Of a stretch of 64,000 nt of DNA, positions 41,494 through 64,000 are shown one piece after another. The position numbers and the translations under genes are program-made. The stretch is from Patescibacteria group bacterium (GTDB lineage Bacteria > Patescibacteriota > UBA1384 > DATEAH01), in contig DATEAH010000005.1 of NCBI GenBank assembly GCA_035288465.1, positions 3,636 to 67,635 on the forward strand, given 5' to 3'. The number at the start of each line of letters is the position of its first letter. The first letter of the stretch is position 1. The notes under the pieces were generated by a model. The model did no database searches. It had not been told where the DNA came from and saw nothing but the letters and a program-made list of their open reading frames with translations.

Positions 41494-42732
41494 TCAATGT
41501 CTGATTTCGTATCTGGGTTTGCCAAAAGCGATGCGGTCTGGGGCGGTTTTTAGAACCTGATGCATCGCGGCAGGATAAATAGTTTCGGCGCCAAATTTAT
41601 CATTTAATTTATCCAAAGCTTCGGCTGATTTTTTGATTTTTTCCATTTGCGGAAAAATAGCAATTTGGTGATTTTTTAAATCCGGTTTGAGCCAAAAAGC
41701 CGATACTGACACCCAAATTGGCTGACCATGCCACAAACAATCTGCCAAAAGGCTGAAGATATTTTTAGTAAAACTCAAATTATCAGAAAAGGTAGGCACG
41801 CGGCGGCTTTTGGCAAATGAGGTGCGGTTTGTAAATCTGACCGCCACGCTCACGCCAGAAGCGGAAAAACCCTTTTGTCTTAATCTCGAGCTTGACTTAA
41901 AAATTAATTTTTTAATCACAGCCTCCGCTGATGTACGATTTCTAAACTCAGGCGCTAAAACATGGGAATGGCCAATATTTTGGGTCTGGCTCGCATAATC
42001 GTCAACCTCAAAACCGCGCAAACGCAAATACCATAATTTCCCCCAATGTTTTAAAATTTTTTCTAATTGATGAGAGCTTTTTTGAAAAAATTGCTCAGGC
42101 GTCTTGATCTGAAAAAAATTTAATCTTTTGGCAAGTTGGCAATTTATACCAGTCAGATCAGTCAATTTAGAAAATTCAACATAAAAATTATTTAATTTGG
42201 CAAGTTCCACCACGGCTAAACCGTCGGGCTTGTTTTCTTCGGAGATCATTTTCGCCAAAAAACGGTTTGGCCCAATCCCCACCGAACAAGTCAAGAAATC
42301 GCCGACTTGGCTTTTGAGATTGGTTTTGATTTTTCGGCCAATTTCAGTAGCTTTTTGAAAATTTTGTTCAGAAGGCGAGAGCGGCAAAATAAATTCATCC
42401 ACACTTAAGGGCTGATAAAAAGGGGTAATATTTTCCAGGGCTTTTTTAATTTCTTGATGATAAATCATATACAAAGCTGGTCGAGCCTCGACAATTTTAA
42501 TTTTGGGGTAAATTCTTTTCGCCTCGCCAACACCCATGCCAGTTTTCACGCCGACAGTTTTAGCTTCTTTGGAGGCGGCAATCACGCAACCGGTGGCGCC
42601 GGTGTAAGGCGCAATACCAATTGCCTGGCCTCGAAGAGGCGGCTGCACTTGCTGCTCAATAGAAGCGAAAAAAGAATCCATATCCAAAAACAAAACTTGA
42701 AAATCGCAAGGTTTTTGATTCAATGAGAACAT
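41494..42732 (-). CDS. dinB: Y-family DNA polymerase (DinB / Pol IV-like)
   Basis: N-terminal LDMDSFFASIEQ (matches DinB DMDxFFA[SA]VE), catalytic GIGPNRFLAKM-type region; 412 aa. Confidence 0.85.
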   Translation of the reverse strand: MFSLNQKPCDFQVLFLDMDSFFASIEQQVQPPLRGQAIGIAPYTGATGCVIAASKEAKTVGVKTGMGVGEAKRIYPKIKIVEARPALYMIYHQEIKKALENITPFYQPLSVDEFILPLSPSEQNFQKATEIGRKIKTNLKSQVGDFLTCSVGIGPNRFLAKMISEENKPDGLAVVELAKLNNFYVEFSKLTDLTGINCQLAKRLNFFQIKTPEQFFQKSSHQLEKILKHWGKLWYLRLRGFEVDDYASQTQNIGHSHVLAPEFRNRTSAEAVIKKLIFKSSSRLRQKGFSASGVSVAVRFTNRTSFAKSRRVPTFSDNLSFTKNIFSLLADCLWHGQPIWVSVSAFWLKPDLKNHQIAIFPQMEKIKKSAEALDKLNDKFGAETIYPAAMHQVLKTAPDRIAFGKPRYEIRH

Positions 42733-42808: not shown

Positions 42809-43003
42809 CAAAGGTCAATAATCAAACTTGTGGATAACTAAATAAATTGTGGGGTTCGTTTTTAAACTTCAACCAACTGACGATTGTGTTTAGTGAGTAC
42901 TAAATATTTTACCAGTTGATTTTGGGGGATACAGCTTAAATTATAAGTAATACCGCCGCACATTTTGCGCCTTAGTTTATTTTCTTTTAAATTACCTTAG
43001 TTT

Positions 43004-43716: not shown

Positions 43717-44319
43717 TTATTTTATTTTGGCAATAATTACTAATCTTTTTTCCAAGGAACCTATCGGCCAGCAAGTCATTAAAGTTAATCTTTTCTCAAA
43801 AGTTTGCCCTAAAACTGAAAAATCATCAGGTTGAACAATTTTTTTCCCAATAACTTTGTATTCGTATTCTCGACTTTTATAAACCACTTTTATGGTATCA
43901 TCATCTTGCAGATCGTTTAAGTTAATAAAAATCTGGCGGTAATGGCCCCCAAAATCACTTGATGAATGCCCAAAGATAAAAATATTTCCAACCTTTCCCG
44001 GATAGGGTGTACCTGAATAATGGACAACGCCTTTTTTGAGCAATTTCTGATATAAATCTGGCTGGTTACTATCAGCTTCACCCGCAACTGGCACCCTGAC
44101 ATTGATTTTATCAATTTGAAGGCCAAATTTTTGGAAAGCGACTTCATCAATTTGAAGACTTGACTCGGCATTTTTTTCAGCATTAACTTTATTTGTTTTT
44201 TGAAATGGATTTTTAGGGTGCAATTTATAAAATATAGAATAGCCGATAATAAAATTAATTACCAAATAAACTAAAATCCCAGATGAAATTAGGAAAATCT
44301 GCTTTTTTTTATTGTTCAT
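43717..44319 (-). CDS. Sortase (transpeptidase)
   Basis: N-terminal TM; conserved His (IFIFGHSS) and catalytic Cys in an LTLMTCWP (TLxTC) motif. Confidence 0.85.
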   Translation of the reverse strand: MNNKKKQIFLISSGILVYLVINFIIGYSIFYKLHPKNPFQKTNKVNAEKNAESSLQIDEVAFQKFGLQIDKINVRVPVAGEADSNQPDLYQKLLKKGVVHYSGTPYPGKVGNIFIFGHSSSDFGGHYRQIFINLNDLQDDDTIKVVYKSREYEYKVIGKKIVQPDDFSVLGQTFEKRLTLMTCWPIGSLEKRLVIIAKIK

Positions 44320-45940
44320 AAATTCTTTTATATTTCCGTCGAATTAGCGATGCCATCATTAAAACCAAAGGAATAGATAATAGAATCGGGATAATAGGCT
44401 TATTGGAAGTGATTTTCCCAGTGGCTGGTAGGGTGGCTGCATCAATGTGCAGGCTCAATTGCCGATATACAAGTTGCTGTGGAGAGCCCGAATCTAAAAC
44501 AACAACATAAAAAGTATAATCACCGGCCACAGTTGGCGTCCCGTTAATTCGGCCTGAACTACTATCTAAAGATAAACCGGCCGGTAAGATGCCAAAATAA
44601 TCCTCACATTCTTCATCCCCGGGATTATATAAATTAAGATCTTTAAGCCCTTCTTTGAAAAGATCGGCTTCTTGTGGTTGCAAATCACCGTAATCAATTT
44701 GGCAAAAATATGAAGCGACATACCAGCTTAGCGGATTTGTGCCGGAATTTGACTCTAAGCTCGTCGAATAACTTGAACCTTGGGTTCCGTTTGGCAATTG
44801 AGTGGTGGTGATACTCAATAAATCTACTGGGCTTGACCGCCAAACCTCGGTGCCAGTACCGGCGTTAGAAAAAGCCACATAAAGCCTTTCATTAAAAGTG
44901 ACGGCAAATAAAGCATAATTTGCCGCACTGCCAAAACCATCGGTTTTTTCTTTTGTCCAAGTGGTACCATTAGTGCTGCGATACAATTGGGCACCAGTCA
45001 CCCCATTTCTGGTTCCGAGCCAAAATACTCCATTCACCACCGCCCCCTCATAACCTACCCAAATGTTGTTATCAGAACCAAAACCATCTGTATTAGCTTG
45101 AGTCCAAGCAGTGCCATTGGCTGATCGCCATAATTCCGTGCCGGTCGCAGAGTTTATTGTGCCGGCGTATAAATAACCATTGAATGATTGTAATAAATTG
45201 GTTGAAGAATTGGCAGCTGAACCAAAGCCGTTGGTATTTACTTGCGTCCAACTTTCTCCATCTAAGCTTCGATATATTTTCGTCCCAGTCGCATTGGTGA
45301 CTCCAGCATACAGATAACCGCCAAAAATACTCAAAGAACGAGTTGATGTATTAGCGGCAACGCCAAAACCATCAGTGTTGGTTTGGTCCCAGCTTGTGCC
45401 GTTTGTGGTTCGCCAAATTTCCGTACCTGTGGTGATATTTTCAGTTGCCACATATAAATATCCACCAAATGAGGCAACAGCTCTGGAACCTAAATTATTA
45501 GCATCGCCAAGTCCATCGGTGCCTGATTGTGACCAAGTCCCGGTGGCACCAGTGGCCGAACGCCAAACTTCTAAAACTCCGGCGCCGCTGGTGATGGTGG
45601 TGGCATAAAGATAACCTCCATGACCCACAAAAGCATGAATTTCATCATTATCAGCATTACTAAAACCGCCAGAGACAACTTGACTCCAAACCGTACCATT
45701 GGCTGATCGCCAAATTTGAGCACCAGCGGCAGTATTTGATACCCCGGCAAAAACATAGCCGCCATAAACATAAAGACGAATATCACCCCAGTTAGCGGCA
45801 TTACCAAAACCATCGTCATTAACTTGGCTCCAAGTATATAAATCAGCGGCTTTGGTGGTGGTGGGCAAAAACGAAAAAATAATAAAGAAACATATTAATA
45901 AATAAAAAACAATTCTTGGGCCGAATTTCGTTTTTCTCAT
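44309..45940 (-). CDS. LPXTG-anchored surface protein with ~8 tandem ~48-aa beta-propeller-like repeats and an Ig-like domain
   Basis: Signal peptide. Repeats WxQxNTDGFGxAANxxxxxLxxFxGYLYAGTxNxxTGTELWRSxNGTxW. C-terminal sorting signal LPATGK + hydrophobic segment + RRKYKR. Confidence 0.8.
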   Translation of the reverse strand: MRKTKFGPRIVFYLLICFFIIFSFLPTTTKAADLYTWSQVNDDGFGNAANWGDIRLYVYGGYVFAGVSNTAAGAQIWRSANGTVWSQVVSGGFSNADNDEIHAFVGHGGYLYATTITSGAGVLEVWRSATGATGTWSQSGTDGLGDANNLGSRAVASFGGYLYVATENITTGTEIWRTTNGTSWDQTNTDGFGVAANTSTRSLSIFGGYLYAGVTNATGTKIYRSLDGESWTQVNTNGFGSAANSSTNLLQSFNGYLYAGTINSATGTELWRSANGTAWTQANTDGFGSDNNIWVGYEGAVVNGVFWLGTRNGVTGAQLYRSTNGTTWTKEKTDGFGSAANYALFAVTFNERLYVAFSNAGTGTEVWRSSPVDLLSITTTQLPNGTQGSSYSTSLESNSGTNPLSWYVASYFCQIDYGDLQPQEADLFKEGLKDLNLYNPGDEECEDYFGILPAGLSLDSSSGRINGTPTVAGDYTFYVVVLDSGSPQQLVYRQLSLHIDAATLPATGKITSNKPIIPILLSIPLVLMMASLIRRKYKRIYEQ

Positions 45941-54993: not shown

Positions 54994-55226
54994 CTCGTTT
55001 CGGGATCTATGATTAATAAAATTATACCATTAATCTCCTGAAATAGTCAAGATTTTTTATTTTTTTGTGAGGGTAATGAATATTATTTATTAAATTTGTG
55101 GATAATTGCTACTTGACAAATATATAGTGATTTGCTCTACTCGAGTAGAGATCGGGTGGGTTGCCGATTGTTTGGCGCTTCACCTTTGGTGGAGGCAAGG
55201 CCAGCTTTAAGCAATCCCCGATTTAT

Positions 55227-55277
55227 AAAATCCTCGGCCGCAGGTTTCGCCCTGCAACTTGGCGGAGGATTTTTTTA
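55227..55277. terminator. Strong GC-rich hairpin flanked by T-runs on both strands; terminator of the DUF433/DUF5615 operon
   Basis: aatcctcggccGCAGGtttcgcCCTGCaacttggcggaggatt followed by TTTTTTTATTTT (+); minus strand followed by TTTTATAAAT. Abuts the stop codon at 55275-77. Confidence 0.55.
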
Positions 55278-55664
55278 TTTTGGTTTTATATAATTAATTT
55301 TATCAATTGAAACACGACAAATTTTACCTTTTAATTTATTAATAGAAATAGCTTTGAGGTGACGTTTTAAGATGGTAATTAATTTAGTAGAACGCGGATC
55401 ACTACTTTGGATAAGAATAATGCCCATACTCTTGCTAATTATTTCAGATAAATTTTTATTTGCTTTGAAATCCTTATCCAGAGAGACAAAAATTCTTTGA
55501 TGTTTATTAGCTTCTTTAATTTGAGCAAAATCACTTAATTTTCTTGGCTTTCTTTTTATGGGAGTATAGATTATATTATGTCCCTTCGAACTTAAAAACT
55601 TCCCCGTTGGAATGGGGAAGTTTTCGTCGCAGTAAAAATGAAATTTAGGCATTCTTGGGTTCAA
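55275..55664 (-). CDS. DUF5615-family PIN-like toxin
   Basis: MPKFHFYCDENFP...GHNII...SDF...RIFVSLDKDF matches the DUF5615 pattern (FLxDENxP...GHxV...D...R.xxTxDKDF). Confidence 0.7.
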   Translation of the reverse strand: MNPRMPKFHFYCDENFPIPTGKFLSSKGHNIIYTPIKRKPRKLSDFAQIKEANKHQRIFVSLDKDFKANKNLSEIISKSMGIILIQSSDPRSTKLITILKRHLKAISINKLKGKICRVSIDKINYIKPK

Positions 55665-56020: not shown

Positions 56021-56880
56021 GAGGTGGGGGACGAGGTGGGGGACGGTTCTCTTTGAGCGAGGTGGGGGACGGTTCTCTTTTAAATAGACTTTTTGGCTTT
56101 TCTTACTAGCTTCCTCCATCTTTCTTTAGTTTTCGGTTTATCTTTTGCCTTTCCAAATATCTCTGATTATCACTTCCCCAGATATCTTTATTATACGATT
56201 CTTTAATTATTTGATCTACCATCAGCCGTTGATAGTTTGTTTGGCGCTCTTTTGAATTATCTCCTAATGCCCTGCAAAAGAAATCATCAGTTAAAAGTTT
56301 GTCTTTTTGACCTTGAGCATAATGGTTGTAGCTTGAAAAACGATATTTTTCAGGGCTCTTTACAAGTCTAGCCCTTACTGGATTTAATTCAATATATTTC
56401 CCGCATTGGATGAAGTACTCATCTTTTCCTATCGGTTGGCTCTTGAATCTACCTTGCCAAAAGTGTCCTGTCCAGCCATATCTTTTTTTAAAATAATGAA
56501 AGTATGCAAGGTTGAGTTTTTTCATAAAGATAGAGAAATCAGGAGCTTTTTTGGTTTGAATCAAGAAATGGACATGGTTTGGCATTAAACAATAATGATA
56601 AATATCAAACAAATGTTCTTTTTTGTACTTATTGATTAAATCTAAAAAATGGAGATAATCTTCCTTTGTTTTAAAAACAACATTTCGATTATTACCTCTT
56701 GTTATGATGTGGTAATAAGATTGAGATAAAATAAAACGAGGTGGTCTTGGCATAATTTAATGATAACATATATCAGCCAAAACGCCTAATTTCCTGTTCA
56801 TTTGAGAACCGTCCCCCAATCCAATCCGTTTTTTATGGACTACCAAGCTATCTGACCCCGCTCACGCGGGGTTTTCTTTT
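56021..56880. mobile_element. RAYT / IS200-like tyrosine-transposase element with REP-like terminal repeats
   Basis: HUH/Y1 transposase gene flanked by GAGGTGGGGGACGGTTCTCTTT (x2 plus a partial copy, 56021-56080) and an inverted copy GAGAACCGTCCCCCAA (56804-56819), plus a GC hairpin ccccgc..gcgggg (56856-56871). Confidence 0.6.
56106..56753 (-). CDS. REP-associated tyrosine transposase (RAYT) / IS200-like HUH transposase
   Basis: MPRPPRFILSQSYYHIITRGNNRNVVF (typical RAYT N-terminus); HUH motif MPNHVHFLI; candidate catalytic Tyr in RFSSYNHY. Confidence 0.8.
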   Translation of the reverse strand: MPRPPRFILSQSYYHIITRGNNRNVVFKTKEDYLHFLDLINKYKKEHLFDIYHYCLMPNHVHFLIQTKKAPDFSIFMKKLNLAYFHYFKKRYGWTGHFWQGRFKSQPIGKDEYFIQCGKYIELNPVRARLVKSPEKYRFSSYNHYAQGQKDKLLTDDFFCRALGDNSKERQTNYQRLMVDQIIKESYNKDIWGSDNQRYLERQKINRKLKKDGGS

Positions 56881-57008: not shown

Positions 57009-57497
57009 ATGTCGGCAAAGAGAGTTGTCGGTTTTGTGACTATTATGCTGCTTTCTCTGATTTTGACCCAAGTCGCCATTGCTGGCCCCAAGGGTCGGCG
57101 TAACACTGCCGCTATTCTTGGCGGTCTCACCGTTTATCACGCCCTCAAAGGGCACGACAATGAAGCATTAACTTTTGGACTGGCTACTATTGTTGCCAAC
57201 GAACGATATCGAGATTCGCGAGAGCAAGATTACTCATATGGCAGGCACAGACCGCGTCCCCATCCCTATTCTTATGGTGGTGGCTATGATAGTTACTACC
57301 GTCAGCCTTCATACTATTACCCTTCATCTTATGATTACACGCCTCGTTACTATGCGCCTTGTTATGAACCTCGCTATCGGCGGGTTGATGAATCTTATTA
57401 CGGGCCGCGTCGGTCTTTATTGGAGCGATACGAAGAACGCCCAATCATTATTATTATTGAAGCCGCTCCTGCCAATAACAGATATTACGGCCGGTGA
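57009..57497 (+). CDS. Secreted Tyr/Arg/Pro-rich low-complexity protein
   Basis: Signal peptide VGFVTIMLLSLILTQVAIAG; YSYGRHRPRPHPYSYGGGYDSYYRQPSYYYPSSYDYTPRYY...; GC-rich codons. Confidence 0.55.
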   Translation: MSAKRVVGFVTIMLLSLILTQVAIAGPKGRRNTAAILGGLTVYHALKGHDNEALTFGLATIVANERYRDSREQDYSYGRHRPRPHPYSYGGGYDSYYRQPSYYYPSSYDYTPRYYAPCYEPRYRRVDESYYGPRRSLLERYEERPIIIIIEAAPANNRYYGR

Positions 57498-57986: not shown

Positions 57987-58267
57987 TTTTATTCTCCTTG
58001 TTCAATTAAATCTTCGACTTTGGATTTGGCTTGTTCGAGTAATTCTTTGGATTTTTGACGCGCTATAATTCTTCGATTCTAATGAACTTTAAATTTTCCT
58101 TTTCCACCGGCATCGTGTCGCCATTTTCAAGACAAATATCAAATAAATAGGTTTTAGGATTCGCCCAATTTTCCATTTCTACTAACCCGTCCCCGTACTT
58201 ACTTTTGACTTTTACACCCATCATCTCAACCCTCCTCTTTAATTAAACTTTCAACTTTTATTTTTAT

Positions 58268-58740
58268 TTATATTCCTTTTATTGTATTTTTATTGCAAAG
58301 ATTCATTAAATCACTCCTAATATATTCATCGCGCCAGTCAGTTAGTTTTATTGGCTTGAATGGCAATTCCTTTTTAAGAATTTTCATTGCATAAACTATT
58401 AAACTTTTATTACCATTTCTAATAAATATTCCTTTATTCGTATCTTCTCTTACACAAGCTTCGATTCCATTACAAATATTATTCTGTTTATTTTTAAATT
58501 CTTTAATAGTAAATTTTTTATATAATTTTTTAATTTTACAAACAATACAATTATCGGTTCCCCAATTAAAATTATTATTAAAAAATTTTGCCGTATCTTG
58601 AATATTTTGAACCCTATAATCTTTACCTGTTTTTTCTTTAATAGTTTTTTAATATTATTCCAATTACAATCGTCGTCCGAATTTAATTCATAATAAACTA
58701 TTGCATTATAGAAATCACTTAATTTCTTAATTTTATTCAA
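58268..58740 (-). pseudogene. Hypothetical gene disrupted by a -1/+1 frameshift in an A-run (or sequencing indel)
   Basis: Frame 1 is protein-like only to ...IKKLLK, then low-complexity. An alternative frame from the A-run (~58625-58641) gives a protein-like 120-aa continuation ...TGKDYRVQNIQDTAKFFNNNFNWGTDNCIVCKIKKLYKKF... Confidence 0.35.
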
Positions 58741-58810
58741 TTATTTTTTAACTCCCAAATATTTTGCCGTGAGTAAAATCTAATGAGAACTATCCACATC
58801 AAATAGTTAA

Positions 58811-59263
58811 TTATTCTGACACAATTTTATATACTTTCTCGCATGCCGAAATTAATTTTGATGAATATTCTTGATTTAAAAATGTTGCTTCATGTACAAA
58901 TAAATTTCTATACTTTACTGACATTTTAAAAAAATCCCAATCTATCCCCAATTCATTTTTAATATTCACATGTTTAATCCCGAAAACCAGATTGACTAAT
59001 CGGATTACTTTTGTATTACGATATTTTTCATATTTTTCTTCTACAGTTAATGAATTATCATCAGAATGGATAATAATACTTCGAGAAACTGCCTCAATCA
59101 AAGAACATAATAATGCCACATCTTTTATCCCAACATCAAAATATTGATAAAGTTGATTAGCTATATTAATTCGTGATTTTGATGGTACAGAATAATATTT
59201 TCTTCGTAATTCAATAACATGACGTTGCATTTCCATCAAAAGCTGTTGGTCATCATTACTCAT
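58811..59263 (-). CDS. Hypothetical protein with HEPN-like Rx4H motif (RNLFVHE)
   Basis: 150 aa, helical; R-x4-H near the C-terminal third. Weak assignment. Confidence 0.4.
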   Translation of the reverse strand: MSNDDQQLLMEMQRHVIELRRKYYSVPSKSRINIANQLYQYFDVGIKDVALLCSLIEAVSRSIIIHSDDNSLTVEEKYEKYRNTKVIRLVNLVFGIKHVNIKNELGIDWDFFKMSVKYRNLFVHEATFLNQEYSSKLISACEKVYKIVSE

Positions 59264-59290
59264 TTTTGATTTCCTTATTAAATTTTCTCA

Positions 59291-59761
59291 CTAATTTTTG
59301 TTTAATTTTTCCATTACATCAACAGCATGGCCAATTGTAATTTTTTTATCCCGGATATTTATATCAACGATATATTCTCCAATGGGATCTCCTGCAGTAC
59401 TCTTCATTAAACAAACAAGATAGGCAAAACTATTCTTATCCAATTTTGATATAAGCCAACAAGATTCAAAATAATTGCAATCTATTTTTTTAGATAGCGA
59501 AGGAATTAATATTTGACCATTTTTATCAGAAAAAATTATTAACCCATATCCCTCGGCATAATGTTTTCCCTTTTTGGTTTTTTTATTTATTGCATCAATT
59601 ATTGCCATTTCAAGATCACCTTGAATAAATCTAGGTATAAAAACTTGTTCAAATGCAATACCAACCGGGATATTATTTTTATCGAATCCAATAATATTTC
59701 CATCTCGACCGTCGGGATCTGATGAAGGTACAACTAACACCGGAGATATAATGACCCACAC
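59291..59761 (-). CDS. Hypothetical protein; N-terminus may be supplied by the overlapping ORF 59679..59939 (frameshift near 59755-59775)
   Basis: Both ORFs look protein-like only in their non-overlapping parts. Confidence 0.35.
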   Translation of the reverse strand: MWVIISPVLVVPSSDPDGRDGNIIGFDKNNIPVGIAFEQVFIPRFIQGDLEMAIIDAINKKTKKGKHYAEGYGLIIFSDKNGQILIPSLSKKIDCNYFESCWLISKLDKNSFAYLVCLMKSTAGDPIGEYIVDINIRDKKITIGHAVDVMEKLNKN

Positions 59762-59961
59762 AGCACACTATAATAAGTCCAAAAAGTTCACGAAATAATA
59801 AATCCATTTTCTCTATTTTTTTTGAAGAATAGAGTATATCCGGATTTTTTAATAATTCCGGAATAATTATCTTTTCCAGTATTACTTCTACTGACTTCGC
59901 TGCTATTATTTTTTTATTTATGCCAAATTTTTTTATCATAACTATTCCTTAAATTTTTTAA

Positions 59962-60198
59962 TTAAATTTTGCCGATTTTTCTCCTTGCCTTGTGAATCCT
60001 CATGTGTTTTATCTTTGTCACAACACGTGTTCCCTTAGAAGTAGTTTTTCCTCCCTCAACGATAGGTTTGACGTGGTGCAAAACTTTACCTTTGGGTAAT
60101 TTGCCTTTATTATAACCTTTTTGTTTAAGAACTTTTTTAATTTTTAATGGATTTCTTTCTTTTTTAATTTGTTTTTTAGATAGTTTTCTTTTCTTCAT
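59962..60198 (-). CDS. Small basic HNH-endonuclease-like protein
   Basis: LHHVKPIVEGGKTT...HMRIHKARR fits the HNH pattern (HH..P...GG...H..H). Start taken at the ATG preceded by an AAGGAG RBS; the ORF track begins 10 codons upstream at GTG. Confidence 0.5.
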   Translation of the reverse strand: MKKRKLSKKQIKKERNPLKIKKVLKQKGYNKGKLPKGKVLHHVKPIVEGGKTTSKGTRVVTKIKHMRIHKARRKIGKI

Positions 60199-60292
60199 TC
60201 CATACTCCTTTTTATATAAGTTATCCACAGATTGACTTTCGATTTATTTTCGATTATATTTTAATTATAATGCGTAAAAAAGGGGGTGTCAA

Positions 60293-61855
60293 ATGATCAC
60301 TAAACGCCAAAAACAAGTTCTCGAATTTATTAAAAAATTCATTAGAACGCATGACTACGCTCCCTCTTTAGAAGAAATTAAAAAGCACCTCAATCTTTCT
60401 TCTGTTTCTACTGCCCATCATCATATTTCAAAACTATACAATAAAGGATTTATTAATAGATTAAAAAATAATCCACGAGCGATCGAACTTGTTGAGACTA
60501 AAAAACTAAATTTAATTAAAATCCCTATTGTGGGAACAATAGCTGCGGGTCAACCGATTGAAGCGATAGAAGTTCCTGGTCAGTCAGTGACTCTATCACG
60601 AGATGAAATTGGAAAATTCGGAAATTTTTATGCTCTGAAAGTTGACGGCAATAGTATGATCGACGAAGGTATATTTGATGGTGACTTTGTAATAATTCGC
60701 AGACAAGAAACTGCTGATAATGGACAGACGGTCGTGGCGATTATTGATGATAACGAAGCTACCCTTAAAAAAATTTATAAAGAAAATAAAAGAATTAAAT
60801 TACAGCCAGCGAATCAGGTTATGCTACCTATCTTTCGAAAAGAGGTAAAAATTCGTGGTGTAGTGGTTAAAATCATCAGAAACTTAGAAAATAGCGTTCA
60901 GGATAATACACTGGCTTATAAAAAGAAAATATTATTAAATCGCATTAGAAGTTCTAATCCTAATAGTAGCAATAAATATAAAAGAGTTGCTCTTTCAACA
61001 ATAAGATATGCTGGTGGGAAAAGCTTGGCAGTTGGACATGTGATTGAATTGTTGCCAGACAATATCGAAAAGGTTATTTCTCCGTTTTTTGGTGGTGGTT
61101 CAATTGAAATAGCTATGAGCAAAGAGCTAGATTTGGAAGTAGTAGGTTATGATATATTTGATATCCTTTGCAATTATTGGAAATTTCAGATAGAAAAACC
61201 GAAACTTCTTTATGAAAAATTAAAAGTACTAGAACCAAATAAAAAAACTTTTGAGAAAATTAGATTAATCTTGAATAAAGTATGGAAAAAAAGAATAAAG
61301 TTAGACCCTATAACATTAGCGGTTTATTATGTTTATAACTTTAACTTATCATATGGCCCAGGATTTATGGGTTGGGCTTCTGATATTTATTTAAATGAGA
61401 AAAAATATAATAGAGTAATTAAAAAAATTAGAGACTTTGATCCTAAAAATTTACGGGTTAAATGTGAAGATTTCCAAAAAGTAATCAAGAATCACCCAAA
61501 TGATTTTCTTTATTGTGATCCTCCATATTATATTGGAAAGGATTCAAAAATGTTTAAAGGAATATATCCGATGAGGAATATTCCTGTCCATCATAATGGA
61601 TTCCCACATGAGGCATTAAGAGATTTGCTGAAGAAACACAAGGGTGGCTTTATTTTATCCTATAACAATTGTTCGACAATAAGGGAATACTACAAAGAGT
61701 TCCAACAAGTATTTCCAAGTTGGCAGTACACAATGGGACAAGGAGAAACAAGAATAGGCCAAAATCGCATTAATAATGGGAGTAAAAATCATATAAAGTC
61801 ATCTCATGAAATAATTATTTACAATTTGCCAAAGAATAAATTTTATAATTCTTGA
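60293..61855 (+). CDS. Fusion: complete LexA repressor (wHTH + S24 autopeptidase) + Dam-family N6-adenine DNA methyltransferase
   Basis: LexA hallmarks: ITKRQKQVLEFI, cleavage-site IVGTIAAGQP (Ala-Gly), nucleophile VDGNSM, GDFVIIRR...GQTVVAIIDDNEATLKKIYK (catalytic Lys), VVVKIIRN. ~35-aa linker. Dam hallmarks: RYAGGKS (AdoMet motif I), CDPPYY (motif IV). One 520-aa ORF, no in-frame stop. Confidence 0.8.
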   Translation: MITKRQKQVLEFIKKFIRTHDYAPSLEEIKKHLNLSSVSTAHHHISKLYNKGFINRLKNNPRAIELVETKKLNLIKIPIVGTIAAGQPIEAIEVPGQSVTLSRDEIGKFGNFYALKVDGNSMIDEGIFDGDFVIIRRQETADNGQTVVAIIDDNEATLKKIYKENKRIKLQPANQVMLPIFRKEVKIRGVVVKIIRNLENSVQDNTLAYKKKILLNRIRSSNPNSSNKYKRVALSTIRYAGGKSLAVGHVIELLPDNIEKVISPFFGGGSIEIAMSKELDLEVVGYDIFDILCNYWKFQIEKPKLLYEKLKVLEPNKKTFEKIRLILNKVWKKRIKLDPITLAVYYVYNFNLSYGPGFMGWASDIYLNEKKYNRVIKKIRDFDPKNLRVKCEDFQKVIKNHPNDFLYCDPPYYIGKDSKMFKGIYPMRNIPVHHNGFPHEALRDLLKKHKGGFILSYNNCSTIREYYKEFQQVFPSWQYTMGQGETRIGQNRINNGSKNHIKSSHEIIIYNLPKNKFYNS

Positions 61856-62613
61856 AATTTAGAAATCGCTCTACCGTGGACTAAAACATTATTATATTTA
61901 ATTTTTATTTTATTAATTTTATTTTTTAATAAATTTAGTGTTTTTTCTCGACTCATCCAAAATTTGATTTCTCTATAATGCACATCACTATCATTTCTAA
62001 GTTCAATTTCGCCAATAGTTACACCCTTATTAATCAATATAAAAATAACTTTTTGAGCATCCATCTGCCCAATTCTTTTTGCTTTTGAATTTGAAATCGT
62101 GGTAGAATTATCAAGGGCTTCGATAGCTTCATACCCATCAAAAACATGAAATTGATGATTTTCTTTAATGGTTAAATAATCAACTTCTCCATTATTCAAA
62201 AATGCTTTTTTGAAAAAAATAATTTTGTTTTGCCCTTTATTTAAATATTTACTTAAATTTTTCATTGCAATAGTCAGTAATTCCTTAAACTTTATTTTAT
62301 TTAGTAAATATTTATCTCTAGATGAGGGGAAACAATTAAGACAATCACGAAGAAAATTTGATCCTTGGAAATCAATATCAGTCATTAACCTATTATAACC
62401 ATATAAGAATATTTGCCATTTTTTCTCTCCACTTTTCACGGAATGTATATCACCACGTTTGTCTATTACATCTTTTTTCTTGCCACTACCATGCGTTTTA
62501 CCCCCGATTATACACGCAAATTCTTTTTCGGCATCATGACCACGCTGTCTTACCATCCTAGCATTTTCAGAAGTCATTGCACGACGTTTTATTATTGTAT
62601 TCTTTTGATCCAT
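61843..62613 (-). CDS. Hypothetical protein (256 aa); candidate restriction endonuclease partner of the methyltransferase
   Basis: Convergent with, and overlapping by 13 nt, the 3' end of the LexA-MTase gene. No confident motif (possible D...EIELR). Confidence 0.5.
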   Translation of the reverse strand: MDQKNTIIKRRAMTSENARMVRQRGHDAEKEFACIIGGKTHGSGKKKDVIDKRGDIHSVKSGEKKWQIFLYGYNRLMTDIDFQGSNFLRDCLNCFPSSRDKYLLNKIKFKELLTIAMKNLSKYLNKGQNKIIFFKKAFLNNGEVDYLTIKENHQFHVFDGYEAIEALDNSTTISNSKAKRIGQMDAQKVIFILINKGVTIGEIELRNDSDVHYREIKFWMSREKTLNLLKNKINKIKIKYNNVLVHGRAISKFQEL

Positions 62614-62628
62614 TTTATATTCCTTTTC

Positions 62629-62650
62629 TGCTTCAAGTTTACTCTTTAAA
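62629..62650. promoter_or_regulatory. 18-nt element TGCTTCAAGTTTACTCTT (+AAA), copy 1 (copy 2 at 63898-63918)
   Basis: Identical sequence 15-37 nt upstream of the 256-aa gene start and ~40-60 nt upstream of the 87-aa/308-aa operon start. Confidence 0.5.
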
Positions 62651-62667
62651 ATGATTTTTGTACTTTT

Positions 62668-63594
62668 TTATCCTTTTATTAGCTTAAAACTGATTTTATA
62701 TGTGTAAAAGTCAATATTTTGGGTTACAGACAAGGCACGATGCAGACGAATATCATCTTCATGAGCAATAATTAATCCGCAAACTTTTTGACCTTTTTCG
62801 GCAAGTTCTTCTTTAATATAACCCATATAACTCTGCACTTGACCGATAACAACATCACTCGCTCTTCCTCTTTTAAGTTCTATGACTAATAATTCCTTTT
62901 TGTCCTTGCTGATTGCGAGAATATCAAGCGGCCCGGTGTCTGTTTGATATTGCTTACCAATAATTTCACCCTTTTCTTTAAAAATATTATATTTTTTCCC
63001 TAGAATTGTATGTTCCCAGTTTTGGACCAAAAAATCTTCTAAATACTGCTCGAGCGCAAAAACCGAAGGATCCTCAATGGTTTCATCGGTCGCAATAATA
63101 TCTGCGGGTTTTTTGCCAGAAATGAGTTTTTCAATCTCCTCTGCATATCCTGAGATATTGATAGCCGTTCCGGCTGCGCCTGTTGAATTTTGAAGAGCTT
63201 CACTCATTTGATTTCTTTCAATAACCCCCGGAAACCAACGTACTCCTCGACGATGGGGTAATTTTTCACCTTTTTGATATTCGTAGTTAGTTGTGATTTC
63301 GCCAACCATATATTCGGCTCTACCATTAGGACAAAGAACGATATCATCAACATTTATTCCTTTTGCAATAGTCCAAAGCATGCCACAAGCAAGACCAGCC
63401 GCGACTCTTGATCTCCCTGGATTTTCTTTGAGATATTTAGGAATCATCACTTTATTAAATTCGCGCCAATTTTCGGGTAGTTTATTTGATAAATCTGTTT
63501 TTTTAATCCACCCAACACCAATAAAATTACCAACATGGGCTTCTTCTGCATAAATACTATTTTGCCCTAGCATAATTCTATAATATGCTCTCAT
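62668..63594 (-). CDS. Nuclease: N-terminal PUA/EVE-like domain (tentative) + C-terminal NucS/DUF91 (Shedu-like) PD-(D/E)xK domain
   Basis: C-terminus GPLDILAISKDKKELLVIELKRGRASDVVIGQVQSYMGYIK matches the NucS-type D...ExK...Q..Y motif. N-terminus has FIGVGW...VDDIVLCP..AEYMVGEI...HRRGVRW (PUA-like pattern). Confidence 0.6.
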   Translation of the reverse strand: MRAYYRIMLGQNSIYAEEAHVGNFIGVGWIKKTDLSNKLPENWREFNKVMIPKYLKENPGRSRVAAGLACGMLWTIAKGINVDDIVLCPNGRAEYMVGEITTNYEYQKGEKLPHRRGVRWFPGVIERNQMSEALQNSTGAAGTAINISGYAEEIEKLISGKKPADIIATDETIEDPSVFALEQYLEDFLVQNWEHTILGKKYNIFKEKGEIIGKQYQTDTGPLDILAISKDKKELLVIELKRGRASDVVIGQVQSYMGYIKEELAEKGQKVCGLIIAHEDDIRLHRALSVTQNIDFYTYKISFKLIKG

Positions 63595-63596
63595 CG

Positions 63597-63860
63597 CTAT
63601 TCCTTTATTTTTGTTCTATTGATAATATTTTCGATTACCCAATATTTATAACCATAAATTTTTAGATATTTGTATTTTTTGCCATAAAATGATTTTTTAT
63701 AACCATTTTTATCGATCTCGGCAATAAAAGTATTAATTTCTTCCGATTTTTCCGGATATAAGTCTGTAACAATATATTCGTGGGGAATTTCGGGCATCGT
63801 TTTAGCAAATTGCCAATCAACTGACTTGATTAATTTTTCAATCTGCATTAAATTATTCAT
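63597..63860 (-). CDS. Small hypothetical protein (87 aa), first gene of an operon with the nuclease
   Basis: MNNLMQIEKLIKSVDWQFAKTMPEIPHEYIV...KYKYLKIYGYKYWV; its stop abuts the nuclease start. Confidence 0.45.
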   Translation of the reverse strand: MNNLMQIEKLIKSVDWQFAKTMPEIPHEYIVTDLYPEKSEEINTFIAEIDKNGYKKSFYGKKYKYLKIYGYKYWVIENIINRTKIKE

Positions 63861-64000
63861 TCAGTTTTGTTTTTTAATCTCCAAAAGAAAATCTATTTGC
63901 TTCAAGTTTACTCTTAAATTGGGTGGAAAGCAAGAAGTTGTGGGCACAATAGGAAATTAACCTAATTAGTCTAATTATTCTAAAATTGTTATGTTAAGGC

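Follow-up and report, generated by a model that had tools for sequence, protein, structure and literature searches.

The genes described here lie in a 64,000-nt stretch of DNA (the window) from an uncultured Patescibacteria genome (contig DATEAH010000005.1 of assembly GCA_035288465.1), and they make up a type II restriction-modification (R-M) system, in which a DNA methyltransferase with a LexA-like N-terminus is paired with a candidate restriction endonuclease of 256 residues, together with a candidate type IV cassette (62668–63860) and an orphan small gene. An earlier note on this DNA had seen in the same five genes (59962–63925) one composite restriction-modification and anti-phage locus. 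All five open reading frames (ORFs) stand in the ORF list of the window where that note had placed them, and because homologs of all these genes exist in public data, none of them is a chance ORF; the NCBI proteins of the locus are HLC38694–HLC38696. In our view the region is probably part of a defence island gained by horizontal transfer and composed of independent modules, not one integrated machine. Its components are of recognisable kinds, and what is new is a widespread, unannotated family with a predicted HinP1I fold that accompanies an N6-adenine (m6A) methyltransferase, an unnamed putative accessory domain of type IV nucleases, and a LexA fusion with a repeat in its promoter.

The methyltransferase and the 256-residue protein form a probable type II pair

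The methyltransferase gene (60293–61855, plus strand) encodes a fusion of LexA with a D12 methyltransferase, 520 residues long, that is matched in Pfam, NCBIfam and PADLOC. The Pfam domains are LexA_DNA_bind (1.1e-18), Peptidase_S24 (1.4e-26) and MethyltransfD12 (9.1e-33), and the PADLOC type II methyltransferase profile MTase_II matches at 1.8e-110. As a type II R-M system calls for, the motifs for S-adenosylmethionine binding (FFGGGS, residues 265–270) and catalysis (DPPY, residues 409–412) are both intact. The gene for the candidate endonuclease (61843–62613, minus strand) runs towards it, and the 3′ ends of the two overlap by exactly 13 nt (61843–61855), the convergent layout to which the earlier note had drawn attention.

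We scanned for linkage of the two genes in one genome per species, which returned 80 loci. At every one of them a homolog of the 256-residue protein abuts a closely related D12 methyltransferase (phmmer E values of about 1e-89 to 1e-175 for complete methyltransferase genes), and the same holds for L001–L004, so that a separate nuclease gene is conserved beside the methyltransferase, as it is in type II systems. The usual arrangement (74 of the 80) is co-directional, with the methyltransferase gene first, most often overlapping the nuclease gene, and without LexA. Convergent genes with a LexA-fused methyltransferase are found at five of the 80 loci (L012–L015 and L018) and at the metagenomic loci L002–L004, and it is these loci, mostly from Patescibacteria, that carry the closest relatives of the query; at a single locus (L033) the genes are convergent and LexA is absent. 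Hosts of the family are scattered among Bacteria of many phyla and four lineages of Archaea, and the cultured Helicobacter magdeburgensis and Caldimicrobium thiodismutans are among them. At L086:6001–6672 and L087:6001–6720 the homolog is split into two ORFs next to an intact methyltransferase gene, which suggests a decayed restriction gene, and at L089:2071–3657 it is duplicated in tandem. Patchy spread, a broken restriction gene beside an intact methyltransferase gene and a duplicated restriction gene together are the hallmark of mobile type II R-M.

We regard the linkage as decisive for the conclusion that the methyltransferase and the 256-residue protein are an orthodox type II R-M pair (60293–62613), in which the D12-class m6A methyltransferase would protect host DNA and the convergent protein, a predicted PD-(D/E)xK enzyme of HinP1I fold, would cut unmethylated sites. 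The earlier note had proposed that the 256-residue protein was the cognate type II endonuclease, and the proposal is upheld by a predicted fold like that of HinP1I, MspI and HhaI and by the constant presence of the same methyltransferase clade next to it; that note had also held that absence of the gene linkage from related genomes would tell against its reading, and for this pair the relatives retain the linkage. A partner from the Dam family (D12) could instead point to a methyl-directed repair nickase of the MutH or Vsr kind working with a Dam-like methyltransferase. We find this extremely improbable, as the methyltransferase falls below the Dam family cut-off (60 bits vs. 114.85), and strict two-gene linkage, sporadic occurrence across phyla including archaea and decayed restriction genes beside intact methyltransferase genes fit mobile R-M. 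The nearest methyltransferases of solved structure are distant (7m6b, 5e-12; DpnM, 1.4e-8), and this distance together with the failed Dam cut-off means that GATC specificity is not indicated; the recognition site of the R-M pair is probably not GATC.

The 256-residue protein has a predicted HinP1I-like fold

The earlier note had recognised no domain in the 256-residue protein, and this was borne out by our searches, which gave no match in Pfam, NCBIfam, PADLOC, PHROGs or the PDB sequences; homology to HinP1I, MspI and HhaI was likewise undetectable at the sequence level in PDB, Pfam, NCBIfam and PADLOC. A PDB profile search with the family returned spurious myoglobin matches only, and tblastn located no copy in plasmids. 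Homologs of 245–270 residues number at least 691, come from Bacteria and Archaea and are all annotated 'hypothetical'. D48, S58 and K60 do not vary in an alignment of 55 family sequences, in which E31 reaches at least 90% conservation and a second conserved block, GEIExRND, is present.

The AlphaFold2 model built from this alignment has a predicted local distance difference test (pLDDT) score of 90.3 and a predicted template-modelling (pTM) score of 0.85, and a Foldseek search with it found HinP1I as the sole significant match (E 1.7e-5, probability 1.00, template-modelling (TM) score 0.51). In the model E31 lies on the first long helix (helix 1), D48 on strand 2 and S58-V-K60 on strand 3, these positions being given with no residue-level superposition. 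As modelled, the protein shares the fold of HinP1I, MspI and HhaI and their E...D...(polar)-x-K layout, and this predicted active site is the canonical PD-(D/E)xK arrangement; we take E31/D48/S58-x-K60 to resemble the E...D...(Q/N)xK sites of HinP1I and MspI. The predicted fold is a known one and the sequence family is new, being absent from annotation in all libraries searched.

Because the partner is an m6A D12 methyltransferase, the target of the pair must contain adenine. A site-avoidance test of palindromic 4-mers, 6-mers and XYNNY'X' patterns covered the window and 84 carrier loci, with control loci for comparison. GATC, CTAG and GGCC were depleted in carriers and controls alike. GTNNAC, which was the most depleted pattern in the window (observed/expected 0.68, z −3.1) and the second most depleted in carriers, was depleted in controls too (0.86–0.88) and was set aside as too weak. 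These results bring to light a large family whose members are probably type II restriction enzymes and would cut an adenine-containing site, which is of practical value for enzyme discovery and genome annotation.

The methyltransferase carries a LexA part and a conserved promoter repeat

The N-terminal part of the methyltransferase passes the NCBIfam equivalog model for lexA (TIGR00498; 189.6 bits vs. a cut-off of 110.95) and retains Ser121, Lys159 and the site for self-cleavage, Ala85-Gly86. Every one of the seven LexA-methyltransferase fusions that we aligned (the 520-residue protein and six others) has these Ala-Gly, Ser and Lys residues, and to judge from these residues and domains the N-terminus is a complete LexA, with its DNA-binding and S24 domains, that is apparently cleavable. 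The uninterrupted 520-residue ORF occurs in the window and in 15 other contigs, and the deposited annotation of the metagenome-assembled genome gives the methyltransferase as 314 residues ('DNA adenine methylase', HLC38695.1); public annotation may have missed or split the LexA part. At L013:3920–5770 and L014:3967–5826 (both minus strand) a second fusion of LexA_DNA_bind and Peptidase_S24, this one to a gamma-class N6_Mtase/Eco57I-type methyltransferase, adjoins the pair of LexA-D12 methyltransferase and 256-residue homolog. The two fusions side by side indicate that Patescibacteria fuse LexA to different classes of methyltransferase. A literature search found no paper describing LexA-methyltransferase fusions, and their repeated appearance with a complete LexA and different methyltransferase classes presents a testable link between R-M control and the DNA-damage response.

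The methyltransferase gene is divergent from a gene for a 78-residue protein, and in the 64-nt intergenic region between them a promoter scan placed two overlapping, back-to-back promoters. The methyltransferase promoter is sigma-70-like (TTGACT-17-TATATT, 60232–60260, plus strand), and that of the 78-residue protein is a perfect consensus (TTGACA-17-TATAAT, 60264–60292, minus strand), matching at 12 of 12 positions. In the spacer of the methyltransferase promoter there is a direct repeat, TTTCGAT-N4-TTTTCGAT (60237–60254, plus strand), which is a candidate LexA operator, and just upstream of the −35 element is the 9-mer TTATCCACA (60221–60229, plus strand), which corresponds to the DnaA-box consensus and of which the window has 3 copies vs. 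0.57 expected.

Related elements recur at other LexA-methyltransferase genes. A TTTCGR repeat with an 11-bp period lies between −35 and −10 at L002, L013a, L013b and L014b, and in inverted form at L012; TTATCCACA, in either orientation, stands beside the LexA-methyltransferase promoters of L002, L012 and L013 (two genes) and, with one mismatch, of L014, so that at L002, L012, L013 and L014 either TTATCCACA or TGTGGATAA adjoins the promoter repeat. The promoter of the second, Eco57I-type fusion at L013 and L014 has the same TGTGGATAA and 11-bp-period repeat.

The LexA part may therefore be a regulator of its own gene, the counterpart of the controller proteins or N-terminal helix-turn-helix domains of other R-M systems. 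By binding the conserved direct repeat in its own promoter it would make synthesis of the methyltransferase autoregulated, and DNA damage, for example from self-restriction, would lead through RecA-stimulated self-cleavage of LexA to derepression and more methyltransferase. With the self-cleavage apparatus intact, the system would be coupled to RecA and to DNA damage.

Elsewhere in the window, a second copy of TTATCCACA (42829–42837, minus strand) is located about 11 nt upstream of the −35 element of a gene for a Y-family (IMS/DinB-like) polymerase (41494–42732, minus strand), which is a classical SOS gene. The promoter of this gene has a TTTGTAT...TTTTGTAT repeat between −35 and −10, in a layout like that of the methyltransferase promoter. 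The third copy of TTATCCACA is at 55097–55105 (minus strand). A near-copy of the promoter repeat, TTCGATATATTTTCG (45268–45282, plus strand), falls within a gene of 543 residues (44309–45940, minus strand) and is probably a chance match.

The adjoining cassette encodes a candidate type IV nuclease

The 308-residue protein (62668–63594, minus strand) joins an EVE/YTH-like PUA domain to a NucS-like PD-(D/E)xK nuclease and corresponds to PDC-S02, which PADLOC lists as a candidate single-gene defence system. The PDC-S02 profiles PDLC04824 and PDLC04799 match it at 9.7e-148 and 1.2e-147 over residues 1–307/308, that is, over its full length, which is what assignment to PDC-S02 takes. Its precomputed annotation is DUF8426 plus NucS_C, with a PUA-superfamily domain (Pfam DUF8426) from residue 1 to about 160, and Pfam NucS_C covers residues 204–278 (30.6 bits vs. 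a cut-off of 24, E 3.7e-7). The motifs quoted in the earlier note were located (DILAI at residue 224, IELKRG at 238 and GQVQSY at 251). The family is highly conserved and has more than 7,700 matches; D224, E239, K241 and Q252 are invariant, the first three of these in an alignment of 48 sequences. The protein thus has both a PUA-superfamily reader and a fused nuclease with intact catalytic residues, the two parts of a type IV enzyme of the PUA-reader kind. In a comparison with modification-dependent enzymes it scored 7.7 with VcaM4I, 7.1 with AspBHI and 5.6 with MspJI.

The earlier note's assignment of a PUA/EVE-like reader and a NucS-like nuclease holds at the level of predicted structure and agrees with the NucS_C and PDC-S02 matches. 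Its Shedu label has to be dropped, since PADLOC gives no Shedu match and the protein does not fit the Shedu/DUF4263 profile. We also rejected NucS orthology, because the protein reaches 34.4 bits vs. 216 with NF003270 and 21.9 vs. 252 with NF002876 and matches over residues ~196–299 only. The predicted architecture is that of a modification-dependent (type IV) enzyme, for which the protein is an unvalidated candidate: on invading nucleic acid, a modified base would be flipped out by the reader, with the nuclease cutting nearby. Bell, Wolf and Koonin (2020, PMC7641849) predicted that fusions of EVE and PD-(D/E)xK domains are modification-dependent restriction enzymes, and other kinds of PUA-nuclease fusion have been validated (PMC6765204). 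The combination of an EVE/YTH-like reader with a NucS-like nuclease gives PDC-S02 a structural rationale.

One homolog of PDC-S02 precedes a type I hsdM gene by 4 nt (L239:1371–3737), and another follows an MmeI-like enzyme by 5 nt (L240:1225–4927). A third, on a plasmid of Acinetobacter, belongs to a type I operon, where it separates hsdS from an abortive-infection (Abi) gene, and a fourth, on a Daviesbacteria contig (L238), has a DUF433/DUF5615 pair and a PLD-SNF2 protein as neighbours. The frequent position of such homologs inside R-M operons supports a role in defence. Four of the six distinct contexts examined, window included, adjoin an m6A methyltransferase, three of them being L239, L240 and L249:2678–11426 (type I hsdM twice and MmeI-like once), an intriguing adjacency, given the YTH-like reader of the protein.

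Two points count against a DNA-restricting role for the 308-residue protein. YTH and EVE domains often bind RNA, and the target could be RNA. Furthermore, the sole PDC-S02 representative tested left E. coli B unprotected against T4, T5 and T7 (bioRxiv 10.1101/2024.09.26.614923), a failure that would suit an RNA-directed or abortive-infection effector whose YTH/EVE-like domain senses modified RNA or a ligand and whose nuclease degrades RNA or host DNA. Such an effector would also be consistent with the Abi-family neighbour of the Acinetobacter homolog and with the RNA targeting proposed for other type IV-like systems (PMC11090510). Even so we judge it unlikely, because the nuclease domain is nearest to that of NucS, a DNA endonuclease, and because EVE-PD-(D/E)xK fusions are predicted to restrict DNA (PMC7641849), and we continue to read the protein as a candidate type IV enzyme.

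The 87-residue protein belongs to a putative accessory domain family

The cassette's first gene (63597–63860, minus strand) encodes an 87-residue protein from an undescribed family of ~85-residue domains (W-x-FAKTMP-x-IPHEY ... YKYW ... INR). The gap between its stop codon and the ATG of the 308-residue protein is only 2 nt, and the two would be translationally coupled. The two-gene operon of the earlier note is supported by this spacing and by recurrence of the pair in other genomes, and the linkage is partial in that most PDC-S02 genes examined have no 87-residue partner.

No match to the 87-residue protein was found in Pfam, NCBIfam, PADLOC or PHROGs, or by profile in PDB, and tblastn found none in GenBank phages. 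There are 52 close homologs (60–80% identical), mostly from Patescibacteria, and a profile search reached 2,427 cluster representatives, 551 of them below 1e-10. Among the best 150 profile matches, ~30% are longer fusion proteins, and the domains in these that can be named are class I methyltransferase, EEP nuclease, PDDEXK_4 nuclease and Bro-N.

The gene adjoining the close homologs almost always encodes a type IV-like nuclease, at a spacing of −3 to +10 nt. The homologs precede proteins with GmrSD_N and GmrSD_C (L093, L094/L095, L098, L099, L137 and L005/L006), a GmrSD_N-HEPN-DUF4357 protein (L097), PDC-S02 (L096, L100, L007–L011 and the window) and a DUF4268 protein (L092). The last of these was considered as a relative of PDC-S02 and rejected (hhalign probability 3%). 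In ~17 contigs from the human gut the domain is itself the N-terminus of a 611-residue GmrSD_N-DUF7834 protein, and in gut contigs L120–L154 (e.g., L122:4986–8879) this fusion is followed 10 nt on by a 682-residue GmrSD protein, making a two-gene type IV-like system. More distant relatives on viral contigs (27–45% identity) precede genes for PAPS-reductase/DUF3440, N6_N4 methyltransferase and GNAT proteins. The copy in the window is 77% identical to the DUF4268-linked copy, 67–75% to GmrSD-linked copies and 70–71% to other PDC-S02-linked copies, so identity is not grouped by partner nuclease. The protein contains 14 aromatic residues, several of them invariant, and has an isoelectric point (pI) of 9.0.

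From its changing partners we read the protein as a putative generic accessory domain of modification-dependent nucleases, whose binding target is more likely DNA or a ligand than the surface of one particular nuclease, and as a subunit it would serve type IV nucleases that are unrelated to one another. As a small first gene coupled in translation to potentially toxic nucleases, dispensed with by most PDC-S02 genes and mildly basic in its product, it could also encode a protein that inhibits the following nuclease as an antitoxin would, or that controls its transcription, and not a working subunit. This we think somewhat unlikely. The domain occurs in one chain with GmrSD_N, methyltransferases and EEP and PDDEXK_4 nucleases, which is unusual for an antitoxin; it serves unrelated nucleases at 67–77% identity without co-varying with them, which argues against a specific protein-protein inhibitor; and no helix-turn-helix or other regulator family was matched in Pfam, NCBIfam, PADLOC or PHROGs.

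We therefore keep to the accessory subunit, and put forward as possible, with some doubt, the fuller reading in which this protein is an interchangeable subunit of unrelated type IV nucleases, sensing DNA or a modified base or else regulatory, and a cleavable LexA on the methyltransferase ties the neighbouring type II system to the SOS response. Neither half of that reading was present in the libraries or papers searched. An unnamed and widespread domain that travels with type IV nucleases could reveal how they are targeted or controlled.

The locus is probably a juxtaposition of modules

None of the 80 R-M loci has a homolog of PDC-S02, the 87-residue protein or the 78-residue protein within 6 kb, and none is present at L001–L004; conversely, PDC-S02 homologs elsewhere lack the 256-residue gene and mostly lack the 87-residue gene. 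The window itself contains a 21-nt direct repeat, with one copy (TGCTTCAAGTTTACTCTTTAA, 62629–62649) 16 nt upstream of the start codon of the 256-residue protein and the other (63898–63918) 38 nt upstream of that of the 87-residue protein (2 copies vs. 0.02 expected). The repeats bracket a 1,269-bp unit with exactly the 87- and 308-residue genes, and the repeat is in no other fetched locus. Their placement has the look of a scar left where a cassette entered the restriction gene's leader, and they may alternatively be a shared regulatory element. From the 80 loci without the other genes, the different neighbours of PDC-S02 and the 87-residue protein elsewhere, and the bracketing repeats, it follows that the locus is a juxtaposition of modules, as is common in defence islands.

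That all five genes should instead be one integrated, mutually dependent and non-textbook defence system, as the earlier note had it, is very unlikely. Tight packing would favour it, with three genes on one strand at gaps of 2 and 54 nt, as would the overlap of the 78-residue and methyltransferase promoters and the invariance of the arrangement in 23 contigs of the population. Against it, besides the 80 loci and the repeats around the cassette, are PDC-S02 homologs that occur alone or with other types of R-M system and 87-residue homologs that pair with GmrSD or DUF4268 genes; the five-gene set was looked for in unrelated genomes and not found. For the set as a whole the linkage is absent from relatives. 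The observation of the earlier note is confirmed, and its interpretation partly supported.

Several points weigh against the modular reading and its parts. The 256-residue gene is 54 nt from the 308-residue gene on the same strand, which allows co-transcription of the 256-, 87- and 308-residue genes and makes some functional coupling possible. There is no empty site without the cassette, as all 23 contigs with the 256-residue protein carry it. The fold assignments at the locus rest on predicted models, and the 256-residue family matches no solved restriction endonuclease in PDB, by single sequence or by profile, and no PADLOC restriction endonuclease model. The idea of a LexA operator draws on 6–7 promoters only, and TTCG-N7-TTCG is not enriched in the window (4 found vs. 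3.0 expected).

The orphan small gene and the island setting

Divergent from the methyltransferase gene is the gene for the 78-residue HNH-like protein (59962–60198, minus strand). The mechanical ORF is longer (59962–60228, 88 residues, from a GTG at 60228), and its start falls inside the regulatory 9-mer TTATCCACA, while the ATG at 60198 is preceded by a ribosome-binding site (AAAGGAG) and gene callers in public assemblies also give 78 residues, the length that we judge from these signals to be probably the real one. The protein has 30 Lys/Arg residues and a pI of 11.8, and its C-terminal half reads LHHVKPIVEGG...RVVTKIKHMRIH. All its matches are sub-threshold, and almost all point to HNH nucleases of the colicin type or fused to Cas8f: Pfam Col-Pyo_DNase scores 14.7 bits vs. 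a cut-off of 27 (E 0.035), and among PDB sequences (E 0.045–0.14) colicin E7 (0.045), Cas8f-HNH (0.11) and colicin E9 (0.12) align LHHxKPI..GG...VVT..H..IH with it. The His-His and H-x3-H residues are present, and the structural Asn of colicin E9 is replaced by Thr. The divergent gene that the earlier note had called HNH is real, then, and likely of 78, not 88, residues; the HNH part of the name comes from sub-threshold colicin-DNase matches, and 'HNH-like' is a reasonable label, the match pattern being consistent with membership and not proof of it. Homologs were found neither beside other LexA-methyltransferase loci nor in viral contigs, and its cluster holds only copies from the same genome. 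We would describe this gene as a third module, an orphan basic protein with a putative degenerate HNH motif and a perfect promoter overlapping that of the methyltransferase.

The earlier note's 'defence-island-like' is a fair description of the setting, with its low G+C (GC) content, many ORFs without matches (ORFans), an IS200-like transposase and a DUF433/DUF5615 pair. GC content drops to 26–31% over 58–63 kb vs. 35–43% across most of the window, and it is lowest at 58000–60000 (26–29%), where GC skew is strongly negative. A run of ORFans at 58450–59939 has no match in any library searched. In a longer contig of the same genome the island appears as a mostly unannotated run of ~15 kb between BipA-like and thioredoxin-reductase-like genes, with an IS200-type transposase, an NYN protein and the DUF433/DUF5615 pair among its contents. 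The IS200-like Y1 transposase (56106–56753, minus strand; Pfam Y1_Tnp, 4.8e-19) is ~3 kb from the locus. The DUF433 and DUF5615 (PIN-like) genes of the same island (55275–55664, minus strand, and its upstream neighbour, seen in L172:17723–18320) are probably a toxin-antitoxin module. An ORF of 162 residues (57009–57497, plus strand) has a hydrophobic N-terminus and a low-complexity tail rich in Tyr, Pro and Arg (YSYGGGYDSYYRQPSYYYPSSYDYTPRYY), and ten further island genes gave no significant PADLOC match.

Comparison with known systems

The 256-residue protein is like R.HinP1I, R.MspI and R.HhaI in its size (~250 residues), in having a methyltransferase partner and in its predicted active-site layout (first helix, an acidic residue; strand 2, Asp; strand 3, polar-x-Lys). 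It differs from them in that no sequence similarity is detectable (10–16% identity in structural alignments), in its S-x-K motif, which is Q/N-x-K in HinP1I and MspI-type enzymes, and in its partner, an m6A D12 methyltransferase, whereas HinP1I, MspI and HhaI have C5-cytosine methyltransferases as partners. A helix-turn-helix regulator at the N-terminus of the methyltransferase is also found in M.SsoII, M.EcoRII and M.MspI, and other R-M systems are controlled by C proteins. The fusion described here is like these self-regulating methyltransferases in its N-terminal DNA-binding domain, with a conserved repeat in its own promoter, but here the regulator appears to be a complete LexA with its self-cleavage apparatus intact.

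The 308-residue protein is distinguished from NucS/EndoMS by its N-terminal domain, which is EVE/YTH-like and not the NucS N-domain, by its genomic context of defence and not repair, and by its failure in the NucS equivalog models. With PDC-S02 and the EVE-PD-(D/E)xK fusions (PMC7641849) it shares the full-length profile match, the reader and nuclease architecture and the defence and R-M neighbourhoods, but in the window it is preceded by the gene for the 87-residue partner, which most members examined lack. Its NucS-like nuclease domain sets it apart from VcaM4I and TspA15I (EVE-HNH) and from MspJI and AspBHI (SRA-like domain with PD-(D/E)xK), to none of which a sequence-level relation was found. 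Finally, there is no GmrSD domain in this window, but the cassette and the GmrSD-family type IV enzymes have in common the accessory domain of the 87-residue protein, which is either encoded upstream or fused at the N-terminus.

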